From assembly GCF_003018255.1 (NCBI RefSeq), contig NZ_CP027440.1: 64,000 bases of DNA. One strand, given 5' to 3'. The position numbers and the translations under genes are program-made. The notes under the pieces are model-generated. The model was not told where the DNA came from. It saw only the letters and a list, made by a program, of their open reading frames with translations, and did not search any database. This DNA is from Escherichia coli (GTDB lineage Bacteria > Pseudomonadota > Gammaproteobacteria > Enterobacterales > Enterobacteriaceae). Positions 43,408 through 57,093 of the stretch are shown piece by piece; position 1 is the first letter of the stretch; each line of letters opens with the position of its first letter.

Positions 43408-45087
43408 ATGAAACAGAAAATTACGGATTACCTGGACGAAATCTACGGTGGAACATTTACCGCAACTCATTTACAGAAACTTGTAACGCGTCTTGAGAGT
43501 GCGAAACGATTAATTACACTGCGACGTAAAAAACACTGGGATGAAAGTGATGTCGTGTTAATCACCTATGCCGATCAATTTCACAGTAATGATTTAAAAC
43601 CACTACCCACATTTAATCAGTTTTACCCTCAATGGCTGCAAAGCATTTTTTCACATGTTCATTTATTACCTTTTTATCCATGGTCATCTGATGATGGCTT
43701 TTCGGTAATTGATTATCATCAGGTCGCCAGTGAAGCAGGGGAGTGGCAGGATATTCAGCAACTCGGTGATTGCAGTCATTTAATGTTTGATTTTGTCTGC
43801 AACCATATGTCGGCAAAAAGTGAATGGTTTAAAAACTATTTACAACAGCAGCCAGGTTTTGAAGATTTTTTTATTGCGGTTGATCCGCAAATCGATCTCA
43901 GCGCCGTCACCCGTCCGCGTGCGTTACCGTTATTAACGCCATTCCAGATGCGCGATAATTCAACGCGTCATTTATGGACCACCTTTAGCGACGATCAAAT
44001 TGACCTCAATTACCGTAGCCCTGAAGTGTTACTGGCGATGGTGGATGTTTTACTGTGTTACCTTGAGAAAGGTGCTGAGTATATCCGTCTGGATGCCGTT
44101 GGCTTTATGTGGAAAGAGCCGGGAACAAGCTGCATCCATCTGGAAAAAACACATCTGATTATCAAACTGTTACGGTCGATTATTGATAACGTTGCGCCAG
44201 GCACAGTGATCATTACCGAGACCAATGTTCCGCATATAGACAACATTGCTTACTTTGGCAACGGTGATGACGAAGCGCATATGGTGTACCAGTTCTCGCT
44301 GCCGCCGCTGGTGCTGCATGCGGTGCAAAAACAGAACGTTGAGGCACTTTGTGCGTGGGCGCAAAACCTGACACTACCTTCCAGCAACACCACCTGGTTT
44401 AACTTCCTTGCCTCTCACGATGGCATCGGGCTTAACCCACTGCGGGGGTTGTTGCCCGAAAACGAAATATTAGCGCTGGTCGAGGTGTTACAGCAGGAAG
44501 GGGCATTAGTAAACTGGAAAAATAATCCCGACGGTACGCGTAGCCCCTATGAAATGAATGTCACCTATATGGATGCGTTGAGCCGCCGTGAGTGTAGCGA
44601 CGAAGAACGGTGTGCCAGGTTTATTCTCGCCCATGCGATTTTGTTAAGTTTCCCCGGTGTGCCAGCGATATATATTCAAAGCATTCTGGGGTCGCGTAAT
44701 GATTACGCAGGTGTCGAAAAACTTGGATATAATCGTGCGATTAACCGTAAAAAATACTCTAGTAAAGAGATAACGACAGAACTGAACAATAAAGCGACAT
44801 TAAGGTATTTGATATATTATAAGTTGTCGCATTTAATTACACTTCGTCGCAGTCATAAAGAGTTTCATCCGGATAATAATTTCACCATTGATGCGATTAA
44901 TTCATTTGTAATGCGAATTCAAAGAAGCAATGCGGATGGCGATTGCCTGACGGGATTGTTTAATGTCAGTGAAAATATTCAGCATATAAATATTACTGAC
45001 CTGCACGGTCGGGATCTGATTAGTGAAGTTGATATATTGGGTAATGAAATAACACTGCATCCCTGGCAGGTTATGTGGATTAAATAA
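43408..45087 (+). CDS. ycjM: GH13-family sucrose-phosphorylase-like enzyme YcjM (reported as glucosylglycerate phosphorylase)
   Basis: ORF 43381..45087; start MKQKITDYLDEIYGG…, 559 aa. Confidence 0.88.
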   Translation: MKQKITDYLDEIYGGTFTATHLQKLVTRLESAKRLITLRRKKHWDESDVVLITYADQFHSNDLKPLPTFNQFYPQWLQSIFSHVHLLPFYPWSSDDGFSVIDYHQVASEAGEWQDIQQLGDCSHLMFDFVCNHMSAKSEWFKNYLQQQPGFEDFFIAVDPQIDLSAVTRPRALPLLTPFQMRDNSTRHLWTTFSDDQIDLNYRSPEVLLAMVDVLLCYLEKGAEYIRLDAVGFMWKEPGTSCIHLEKTHLIIKLLRSIIDNVAPGTVIITETNVPHIDNIAYFGNGDDEAHMVYQFSLPPLVLHAVQKQNVEALCAWAQNLTLPSSNTTWFNFLASHDGIGLNPLRGLLPENEILALVEVLQQEGALVNWKNNPDGTRSPYEMNVTYMDALSRRECSDEERCARFILAHAILLSFPGVPAIYIQSILGSRNDYAGVEKLGYNRAINRKKYSSKEITTELNNKATLRYLIYYKLSHLITLRRSHKEFHPDNNFTIDAINSFVMRIQRSNADGDCLTGLFNVSENIQHINITDLHGRDLISEVDILGNEITLHPWQVMWIK

Positions 45088-45100
45088 AAAGGAACATTTC

Positions 45101-46393
45101 ATGATTAAATCAAAAATCGTGCTGTTATCAGCACTGGTTTCCTGCGCCCTGATTTCAGGCTGTAAAGAAGAAAATAAAAATAATGTATCCATCGAATTTA
45201 TGCATTCTTCGGTGGAGCAGGAGCGCCAGGCCGTCATCAGCAAATTGATTGCCCGTTTTGAAAAAGAAAACCCAGGTATCACCGTAAAACAAGTGCCCGT
45301 GGAAGAAGACGCCTATAACACCAAAGTCATTACCCTTTCACGTAGCGGTTCGCTGCCGGAAGTGATCGAAACCAGCCATGACTACGCCAAAGTGATGGAC
45401 AAAGAGCAGCTTATCGATCGTAAAGCGGTTGCCACGGTCATCAGCAACGTCGGTGAAGGCGCGTTCTACGATGGCGTACTGCGGATTGTGCGCACCGAAG
45501 ATGGCAGCGCCTGGACCGGTGTTCCTGTCAGCGCATGGATTGGCGGGATCTGGTATCGCAAAGATGTGCTGGCAAAAGCTGGGCTGGAGGAGCCAAAAAA
45601 CTGGCAGCAATTGCTGGACGTTGCACAGAAACTGAATGACCCGGCGAATAAAAAATACGGTATTGCGCTGCCTACAGCAGAAAGCGTGTTGACGGAACAG
45701 TCTTTCTCCCAGTTTGCGTTATCCAATCAGGCTAACGTCTTTAACGCCGAAGGCAAAATCACCCTTGATACACCAGAGATGATGCAGGCGCTGACCTATT
45801 ACCGCAACCTTGCTGCCAACACCATGCCAGGTTCTAACGACATCATGGAAGTGAAAGACGCTTTTATGAACGGCACCGCGCCGATGGCGATTTACTCCAC
45901 CTATATCCTTCCGGCTGTGATTAAAGAAGGCGATCCGAAAAACGTTGGTTTCGTTGTACCCACCGAGAAAAACTCTGCGGTCTACGGCATGTTGACCTCG
46001 CTGACCATTACCGTCGGGCAAAAGGCCGAAGAGACGGAAGCGGCTGAAAAATTTGTCACCTTTATGGAGCAGGCAGACAACATTGCCGACTGGGTGATGA
46101 TGTCGCCAGGCGCGGCGCTGCCGGTGAACAAAGCGGTTGTCACTACCGCCACCTGGAAAGACAACGACGTTATTAAGGCGCTGGGTGAGCTGCCAAATCA
46201 GTTAATCAGCGAACTGCCAAATATTCAGGTCTTTGGCGCAGTAGGGGATAAAAATTTTACCCGCATGGGCGATGTGACGGGTTCTGGCGTGGTGAGCTCC
46301 ATGGTGCATAACGTCACCGTGGGTAAAGCCGACCTCCCTGGCACGCTGCAAACGAGCCAGAAAAAGCTGGATGAGTTGGTTGAACAGCGCTAA
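45101..46393 (+). CDS. ycjN: sugar ABC transporter periplasmic substrate-binding lipoprotein
   Basis: 430 aa; lipobox (…LISGC…). Confidence 0.9.
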   Translation: MIKSKIVLLSALVSCALISGCKEENKNNVSIEFMHSSVEQERQAVISKLIARFEKENPGITVKQVPVEEDAYNTKVITLSRSGSLPEVIETSHDYAKVMDKEQLIDRKAVATVISNVGEGAFYDGVLRIVRTEDGSAWTGVPVSAWIGGIWYRKDVLAKAGLEEPKNWQQLLDVAQKLNDPANKKYGIALPTAESVLTEQSFSQFALSNQANVFNAEGKITLDTPEMMQALTYYRNLAANTMPGSNDIMEVKDAFMNGTAPMAIYSTYILPAVIKEGDPKNVGFVVPTEKNSAVYGMLTSLTITVGQKAEETEAAEKFVTFMEQADNIADWVMMSPGAALPVNKAVVTTATWKDNDVIKALGELPNQLISELPNIQVFGAVGDKNFTRMGDVTGSGVVSSMVHNVTVGKADLPGTLQTSQKKLDELVEQR

Positions 46394-46413
46394 ACCCAGG
46401 ACAGGAATCCGCA

Positions 46414-56044: not shown

Positions 56045-56057
56045 TAATGGGTTAAAT

Positions 56058-56089
56058 TGCCGGATGCGGCGCGAGCGCCAAATCCGGCA
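56058..56089. repeat. REP-like palindromic element between ompG and ycjW
   Basis: TGCCGGATGCGGCGCGAGCGCCAAATCCGGCA. Confidence 0.7.
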
Positions 56090-56094
56090 TACAT

Positions 56095-57093
56095 TTATTT
56101 CAACGACATATGCGTGGCAACGGTAATATTTTGTGGTGACGGTTTTCCGGCAATTAAGCGGAATAATAACTCGCAGCTTTGTTGCCCTAACTCCTGCGTC
56201 GGAACATCGATGCCGCCCGGTGCAGGCGTTAAAATAAATGACAGCGTTTCATTGCTATAGCCCACCACCGCTAACTGCTGCGGAATAGCAATATTTTTCT
56301 CTGCTGCCGCACGATAAATGCTCATTAATTTCAGGCTGTCAGTGGCAAATACGGCTTCTGGCAACGGCGACTGGCTTAATAATTGCCGTGCGGCTTGCAA
56401 GGCTGTTTCATGGGTATAACCGCCGTCAACAATCCATTCATCACGCACTGCAATATTATGCGCAGCCAGACTTTGCTTATAGCCATTAACGCGGTCAACC
56501 GAGACATGGACATCAAGCGGAGCATGCAGGCAGGCAATATTTTGATGCCCACTTTCAATTAACGCATCGGTCAACGCAATGCTGTCGCCAAAATTATCGG
56601 TATCGACAGAATAAACATGGGCATATTGACCTTCAACTTTGCCAATTACCACCACCGGAATATCATATTTATCGAGTTGGGCAAAAAATGACTCATCCGC
56701 TGGCGAACTTAGCATAATAATGCCTTTAATCATTTTCTGCTTAATTTTGCTTTCGCATTTTTGTAAGTCTTCTGCCAGGTTGTGCGACGTCTGCAATATC
56801 ACGTCGAAACCTTCTTCTTCAGCTTTGGCGGTGATGGCATGTAAAACTTCCGAGAAAAACGGATTACCCGCCGTAGTTTTGGTCGAACGGGTAGAAATCA
56901 CCATAATGGCATCAAAACCCGAAGAGGTCAGCGCGCGTGCCAGCTTGTTTGGTTGATACTGTAATTCTTCAATGGCCCGTAACACTTTTTCGCGCGCTTC
57001 CGGGGAGATATTGGTTTGCTTATTCAGCACGCGTGATACGGTGGATTTTGATACGCCTGCAACCCTGGCAATATCATAAATAGTAGGGGACAT
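56095..57093 (-). CDS. ycjW: LacI-family transcriptional regulator
   Basis: 332 aa; N-terminal LacI HTH (…[21 protein letters not shown]…). Confidence 0.92.

Follow-up and report, generated by a model that had tools for sequence, protein, structure and literature searches.

Does an uninterrupted ATPase gene make a sugar importer complete? The question is raised by a 64,000-nucleotide stretch of the Escherichia coli chromosome (the window; RefSeq assembly GCF_003018255.1, contig NZ_CP027440.1), which carries at positions 43408–57093 the ycjM–ycjV/ompG carbohydrate locus: eleven co-directional open reading frames (ORFs) on the plus strand (ycjMNOPQRSTUV and ompG) and the convergent minus-strand regulator gene ycjW. 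An earlier note on this DNA, made from the sequence letters, had singled out the apparently intact ycjV gene, which encodes the ATP-binding cassette (ABC) ATPase of the locus, and had reasoned that with an intact ATPase the transporter would be complete. We are confident that the region is the known YcjW regulon with ycjV in its usual intact state, and that it carries a haplotype-private glutamine-to-leucine substitution in YcjV, Q83L, which we infer to be hypomorphic or uncoupled. The finding is thus a known operon in its usual state plus a small allele-level curiosity that undercuts the inference of a complete transporter.

The reading frame is as the earlier note had described it: ycjV runs for 360 codons without interruption and ends in a TOBE-type C-terminus (OB_MalK at residues 236–288, TOBE_2 at 282–351). 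Its remark that K-12 carries a disrupted copy was correct as well, NC_000913.3 listing ycjV (b1318) and ymjB (b4524) as abutting pseudogene pieces. When window positions 54012–55138 are aligned with K-12, as had been proposed, one indel is found, and the K-12 gene is neither identical nor intact. The lesion is a −1 frameshift in a run of G at codons 318–320, after which the K-12 frame reads ...TTVGGTS and stops at 322 residues, without the last part of the TOBE domain. The K-12 ycjV/ymjB pseudogene arises because the run of six G (G6) is five (G5) there; the window gene is uninterrupted because the ancestral G6 was kept, and it bears no K-12-type lesion.

How unusual is the intact gene? We surveyed complete RefSeq E. 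coli genomes with a 35-nt probe centred on the G run, counting exact matches. The ycjU–ycjV–ompG segment was found in 5005 of the 5426 genomes. The exact G6 35-mer occurs in 4582 of the 4981 matched genomes (~92%) and the exact G5 35-mer in 371–374; of 60 G5 genomes taken as a spread sample, approximately 55 can be recognised from name and genome size as K-12 laboratory derivatives, including MG1655, BW25113, DH1, HB101, MC4100, J53, EC600 and Stbl4. The earlier note's view of intact ycjV as a distinguishing feature therefore does not stand: G6 is the species norm, G5 belongs mostly to K-12 derivatives, and the intact gene is the ancestral, common state and not noteworthy. Purification of full-length E. 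coli YcjV (WP_000057985.1) has already been published, the protein being active as an ATPase (PMC7658222), and a comparative paper lists a ycjV-like ABC transporter gene among virulence factors missing from K-12 MG1655 (PMC8009128).

The survey yielded three further observations. The G5 allele is also present in the clearly non-K-12 genomes 95-3192, 08-00022, OkiPb01701, OkiPb01709 and EcN_Sk (5.06–5.39 Mb), which suggests recurrent slippage or occasional homopolymer mis-assembly. In the migratory-bird isolate HH194M (locus L008, NZ_CP101513.1, positions 1–1653), ycjV is split by IS1A, independently of the K-12 frameshift. Finally, 421 of the 5426 genomes have no match to the ycjU–ycjV–ompG segment; since at least one of them, strain N9, keeps no more of the query than its final 64 bases, the locus is deleted in a minority of E. 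coli strains.

By descent and architecture, YcjV is assigned to the MalK/UgpC/MsmX (CUT1) ATPases, with one hallmark missing. The protein scores 479.7 bits against the NCBIfam model NF008653 (cut-off 432), matches Pfam ABC_tran with E = 3.9e-30, carries the C-terminal OB/TOBE domains given above, and has Walker A (GPSGCGKS, 37–44), the LSGGQ signature (135–139), Walker B with the catalytic glutamate (VFLMDE, 155–160) and the H-loop (VTHD, 191–194). The best solved relative is Bacillus subtilis MsmX (PDB 6yir, E = 2.6e-147); it and E. coli MalK (1q12, 2r6g; E = 1.2e-98) align with YcjV over the full length and share its motifs and its C-terminal regulatory OB/TOBE domain, but both have a glutamine in the Q-loop where the window protein has a leucine. 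E. coli YcjV is reported to be unable to replace MsmX in B. subtilis (PMC7658222).

The missing hallmark is residue 83, which aligns with the Q of MsmX '...AMVFQNYALYPH', that is, with the Q-loop glutamine; the substitution was overlooked in the earlier note. In a scan of 1.84 billion proteins, position 83 is Q in all of the 150 best 50%-identity cluster representatives, and it is Q again in each of the 14 other members read from YcjV's own 90% cluster; the window protein is 99% identical to a Q-containing cluster representative (P0002). Q83L is the sole window-private change in ycjV, accompanied by no private synonymous change. A 35-mer carrying the window's CTG codon was found in none of the 5426 complete genomes (no megablast match; best identity in a sensitive search 97.1%, one mismatch).

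A single-base difference absent from every complete RefSeq genome might be a sequencing or assembly error, and we considered this reading before rejecting it. What differs is one substituted base rather than the length of a homopolymer, and the exact 360-residue protein is found under several independent NCBI accessions, on 70 contigs. We read 24 of the contigs from draft assemblies: 19 were reported as similar to a locus (L005) that shows no difference from the window over 7083 bases, and five to a second locus (L006) in which the same ycjV lies beside a different ~850-bp ycjT tract. An error has next to no probability, and since the exact protein recurs in independent draft assemblies we regard the Q83L allele as real, belonging to one haplotype group and present in at least 24 draft-assembly contigs.

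What would the substitution do? Structures of MalFGK2 place the Q-loop in contact with Mg2+ and the gamma-phosphate, linking the RecA-like and helical subdomains beside the permease interface (PMC6906923), and the oxygen on the glutamine side chain enters the Mg2+ coordination sphere (PMC4447984). Leucine cannot provide a side-chain oxygen for this contact. Like MalK and MsmX, YcjV is expected to be a homodimer, and therefore both ATP sites would be without the Q-loop glutamine. The same holds for the Q475A/Q1118A double mutant of ABCB1, in which both ATPase activity and transport are lost; unlike the importer ATPase considered here, ABCB1 belongs to the eukaryotic type IV exporters and was mutated to alanine rather than leucine, so that the analogy is mechanistic only, and the functional inference for Q83L rests on exporters. 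On this analogy the allele is probably hypomorphic or uncoupled rather than fully functional, with weakened coupling of ATPase to transport. Because the YcjV homodimer resembles the ABCB1 double mutant, we would place the likelihood of substantial impairment somewhere from an even chance to rather likely. Were the allele indeed hypomorphic or uncoupled, the transporter of this strain would be complete on paper only. Given Q83L, the absence of interruptions in the ORF therefore cannot be taken as evidence that the ATPase works, and the completeness of the transporter cannot be assumed from it.

Several published and genomic observations weigh against an impaired YcjV. Q-to-A and Q-to-E mutants of P-glycoprotein keep a reduced ATPase activity, CFTR Q1291A gates normally with ATP, and the Q-loop glutamines of MRP1 were judged unimportant for hydrolysis (all PMC4447984). 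For the Q-loop glutamine of MalK itself (Q82), we found no mutational data in a review of the maltose transporter, which gives it a structural role only (PMC6906923). The carriers have diversified to some extent without losing the allele, which is compatible both with a neutral change and with a dispensable gene. In addition, K-12 does not grow with kojibiose as its only source of carbon even when it lacks YcjW (PMC6599011), for which reason no phenotype has yet been tied to YcjNOPV. Together with the uninterrupted ORF, the presence of all other ATPase motifs and the recurrence of the allele in at least 24 assembly contigs, the tolerance of some ABC proteins to Q-loop mutations leaves room for what the earlier note proposed, namely that YcjNOPV is complete and functional here, unlike in K-12, with Q83L neutral. 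Against it stand the invariance of the glutamine in all of the 150 closest family representatives, the loss of the oxygen ligand for Mg2+ and gamma-phosphate, and the expectation that a homodimer is hit at both sites, as in the inactive ABCB1 double mutant; we consider a fully functional importer possible but rather doubtful.

It may also be that the state of ycjV is largely irrelevant. If YcjNOP were energised by a paralogue, MalK or UgpC, neither the frameshift nor Q83L would abolish uptake. YcjV passes the cut-off of the UgpC subfamily model and scores close to MalK, MalK and UgpC are exchangeable with each other at some loss of efficiency (PMC7658222), and ycjV is sporadically inactivated in the species, by the frameshift in K-12, by IS1A in HH194M and by G5 in a few wild strains. 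Yet no experiment shows MalK or UgpC driving YcjOP, the dedicated ATPase gene is intact in ~92% of locus-carrying genomes, and a defective YcjV(L83) could compete with the paralogues for the permease; we hold this explanation to be unlikely, more so than a neutral Q83L. There is, in our estimate, an even chance that Q83L is a case, fixed in nature, of an ABC importer ATPase being inactivated or uncoupled in a way that pseudogene callers would not see, and this would constitute a third independent loss of ycjV beside the G-run frameshift and the IS1A insertion. It is less likely that Q83L represents a natural homodimeric importer ATPase working without the Q-loop glutamine.

The surroundings of ycjV are those of the YcjW regulon. 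In comparison with NC_000913.3, FDAARGOS_536 and JNE23-011, the window has the same gene content and order, ycjM–ycjV, ompG and convergent ycjW between pspE and ycjX. Each of the 12 genes has the length of its K-12 counterpart and no internal stop in a gene-by-gene comparison. The gene inventory and orientations given in the earlier note agree with the ORF map, the Pfam domains and the K-12 comparison. The features of the locus are collected in the table.

Table. Genes, regulatory elements and allele-defining sites of the ycjM–ycjW locus (window coordinates).
Feature	Position	Strand	Description
pspE terminator-like hairpin	43207–43230	+	10-pair stem with 6 G-C pairs, then CTTTTTCTGT; upstream boundary of the locus (terminator scan)
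Candidate sigma-70 promoter of the operon	43344–43372	+	TTGACA, 17-nt spacer, TAGTCT; read by eye
YcjW operator 1 (putative)	43382–43395	+	TGGGACCGCTACCA; 12 nt upstream of the ycjM ATG, just downstream of the candidate promoter; site of the published ChIP-seq peak and EMSA probe (PMC6599011)
ycjM	43408–45087	+	Predicted GH13-type glucosylglycerate phosphorylase, 559 aa; Pfam Alpha-amylase
ycjN	45101–46393	+	Lipoprotein substrate-binding protein, 430 aa; Pfam SBP_bac_1, SBP_bac_8
ycjO	46414–47295	+	ABC permease, 293 aa; Pfam BPD_transp_1; protein identical to K-12 YcjO
ycjP	47282–48124	+	ABC permease, 280 aa; Pfam BPD_transp_1; 2 aa differences from K-12
ycjQ	48155–49207	+	Zn-dependent dehydrogenase; Pfam ADH_zinc_N; 1 aa difference from K-12, there annotated D-guloside 3-dehydrogenase
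ycjR	49225–50013	+	Xylose-isomerase-like TIM-barrel epimerase; Pfam AP_endonuc_2; 5 aa differences from K-12, there annotated 3-dehydro-D-guloside 4-epimerase
ycjS	50023–51078	+	Gfo/Idh/MocA oxidoreductase, GTG start; Pfam GFO_IDH_MocA N- and C-terminal domains; 5 aa differences from K-12, there annotated D-glucoside 3-dehydrogenase
ycjT	51075–53342	+	Predicted GH65 kojibiose phosphorylase, 755 aa; Pfam PF03636, PF03632, PF03633 (GH65 N, m, C); central domain E = 5e-144
YcjW operator 2 (putative)	53309–53322	+	TGGGACCGCTACCA; within ycjT at its 3' end, immediately ahead of ycjU; matches the second ChIP peak, published as lying 'between ycjT and ycjU' (PMC6599011)
ycjU (pgmB)	53339–53998	+	Beta-phosphoglucomutase, 219 aa; Pfam HAD; NCBIfam TIGR01990 bPGM equivalog, 273.5 bits (cut-off 189.4)
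ycjV	54012–55094	+	MalK/UgpC/MsmX-type ABC ATPase, uninterrupted, 360 aa; Pfam ABC_tran, OB_MalK, TOBE_2
YcjV codon 83	54258–54260	+	CTG (Leu) in the window; CAG (Gln) in K-12, FDAARGOS_536 and JNE23-011
G6 homopolymer run	54966–54971	+	GGGGGG in the window; GGGGG (G5) in K-12, the ycjV/ymjB frameshift site
GC-rich hairpin	55100–55117	+	GGGGGAAGGCAUUCCCCC, in the 44-nt ycjV–ompG spacer; lacks a T tract (+ strand); identical in K-12; RNA fold -13.6 kcal/mol, z = -2.4
ompG	55139–56044	+	Monomeric porin OmpG, 301 aa; 3 aa differences from K-12; PF09381 Porin_OmpG recorded on the same gene of L005
ycjW	56095–57093	−	LacI-family repressor, 332 aa; 4 aa differences from K-12; the identical gene in L005 has LacI and Peripla_BP Pfam domains

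In K-12, YcjW represses ycjM–ycjV–ompG and comes off DNA in vitro in response to kojibiose, and the strongest YcjW peaks of chromatin immunoprecipitation sequencing (ChIP-seq) reported by Luhachack et al. lie at two positions, one of them also covered by the probe for their electrophoretic mobility shift assay (EMSA) (PMC6599011). Both positions carry the same 14-mer in our sequence, TGGGACCGCTACCA, an imperfect palindrome with a central CG that has exactly two zero-mismatch copies in the 64-kb window: one upstream of ycjM and one at the ycjT/ycjU junction, as predicted for operators of the regulon. The motif was derived from these two sites of the window and was not taken from a figure in the published study. 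Upstream of the first operator, TTGACA/17/TAGTCT is a candidate operon promoter, and its position fits the published placement of the YcjW site between the predicted transcription start and the ycjM start codon (PMC6599011). The −10 hexamer is weak, with three of six matches, which is why the automatic promoter scan listed nothing upstream of ycjM. The hairpin in the ycjV–ompG spacer is possibly an mRNA-stabilising or attenuating stem.

For the two phosphorylases, assignments were made by domain content and by orthology to the characterised K-12 enzymes. YcjM (sharing 525 of its 559 residues with K-12 YcjM, 34 differences) is in this way predicted to be a GH13 glucosylglycerate phosphorylase, the annotation carried by its orthologues in K-12 and JNE23-011; its score against the sucrose phosphorylase model TIGR03852 is under the cut-off, as expected given the different specificity. 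YcjT (720 of 755 identical, 35 differences) has all three GH65 domains and is likewise predicted to be a kojibiose phosphorylase. The N-terminus of YcjN, MIKSKIVLLSALVSCALISGC, contains a lipobox, and lipidation of YcjN has been published (bioRxiv 10.1101/2024.09.05.611266). The Pfam families of ompG and ycjW were taken from L005; against the NCBIfam PurR and RbsR models, YcjW gave weak matches, all under the cut-offs.

A proposed working of the locus can be transferred from the published K-12 orthologues at 93–98% nucleotide identity. YcjW would bind the two identical operators, just downstream of the ycjM promoter and at the ycjT/ycjU junction, until kojibiose or a related sugar releases it. 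OmpG would let di- and oligosaccharides through the outer membrane, and import of the sugar would be the task of the lipoprotein YcjN, working with permeases YcjO and YcjP and a YcjV dimer. YcjT would phosphorolyse kojibiose to glucose and beta-glucose-1-phosphate, which YcjU would convert to glucose-6-phosphate; YcjM would phosphorolyse glucosylglycerate, and YcjQ, YcjR and YcjS would interconvert gulosides and glucosides via 3-keto intermediates.

Taken as a whole, the window spans cysB to ycjY of an E. coli chromosome and is colinear with JNE23-011 at 99.1–99.3% identity and ~96% identical to K-12. The 93–98% identity of the locus to K-12 prompted us to consider an origin in another Escherichia species; we rejected it, as 25 kb of adjacent sequence shows 99.2% identity to E. 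coli JNE23-011 and the entire window runs colinear with that strain. Judging by the sequence comparisons, the locus is mosaic and recombinogenic: ycjU is 100% identical to that of FDAARGOS_536 and ycjT 95%. Positions 51396–52250 of ycjT differ by approximately 50 single-nucleotide polymorphisms in ~850 bp from the otherwise near-identical L006 (GCA_020512365.1), hold most of the window-private amino acid changes of YcjT, K197Q through V350I, and look like a recombination tract. General decay of the locus in this haplotype was also considered, and there is no sign of it: private changes over the locus comprise 52 synonymous and 13 non-synonymous ones, and no stop or frameshift occurs in the 12 genes.

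Other differences within the locus are small. In the 5' part of ycjM (43408–43900), the changes Q38L, E121D and T162I are absent from K-12, FDAARGOS_536 and JNE23-011, and residue 74 is P where the others have H or L; the private changes of YcjM, three non-synonymous against two synonymous, are too few to interpret. In the ycjQ–ycjR spacer, at position 49220, the run of A preceding the ycjR start codon has one base fewer than its JNE23-011 counterpart (GGAATG-AAAAAATG versus GGAATGAAAAAAATG), an intergenic difference that alters the spacing near the ribosome-binding site. The ompG–ycjW spacer (56045–56094) is 50 nt long in the window and in FDAARGOS_536, and 110 nt in K-12, with an extra insert of ~60 nt resembling a repetitive extragenic palindromic (REP) element.

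Elsewhere in the window, an accessory island lies between fabI and sapF (17505–25095), where K-12 has ycjD only. It encodes a TetR regulator, an adaptor and a permease of the resistance-nodulation-division (RND) type, an outer-membrane factor and a major facilitator superfamily (MFS) pump. Two ORFs (19440–21425 and 21422–22546) make up the RND permease, which is split by a 1-base deletion near 21406 relative to JNE23-011 (TTCGTG-TGCC versus TTCGTGATGCC), and the split gene (19440–22546) is either a frameshifted pseudogene or a sequencing error. Downstream of ymiC, a 14-nt insertion at 1773–1786 relative to JNE23-011 completes a GC-rich hairpin (CCCCGCTGCGGCGGGG, then TTTT).

Two practical points emerge. 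The absence of K-12 growth on kojibiose and similar sugars was measured in a strain with a truncated dedicated ATPase; natural isolates, or repair of G5 to G6, offer a better system for finding the substrate of the transporter. An uninterrupted ORF does not equal a functional one: with Q83L exchanging a residue of the catalytic site that is normally invariant, this strain would make a poor 'intact' comparator.

The locus, its enzymes, the YcjW repressor and the K-12 pseudogene have all been documented already, and nothing here is new in kind. Among non-K-12 full-length proteins, WP_000057985.1 and WP_024009007.1 of FDAARGOS_536 resemble the window YcjV in being 360 residues long, with ABC_tran and OB_MalK/TOBE domains and an intact G6; the FDAARGOS_536 protein differs from it at three residues. 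All YcjV alleles examined other than the window's have Q at position 83, and ATPase activity has been shown for the Q83 form only (PMC7658222). The operon and ycjW of K-12 MG1655 (b1309–b1320) share with the window gene order, orientation and lengths, the flanks (pspE upstream, ycjX downstream) and the same two 14-bp operators. Their proteins differ by 0–35 residues per gene, with a mosaic nucleotide identity over the locus of 93–98%. In ycjV the two strains part ways: K-12 has the gene split into ycjV' and ymjB by G5, whereas the window combines G6 with Q83L.

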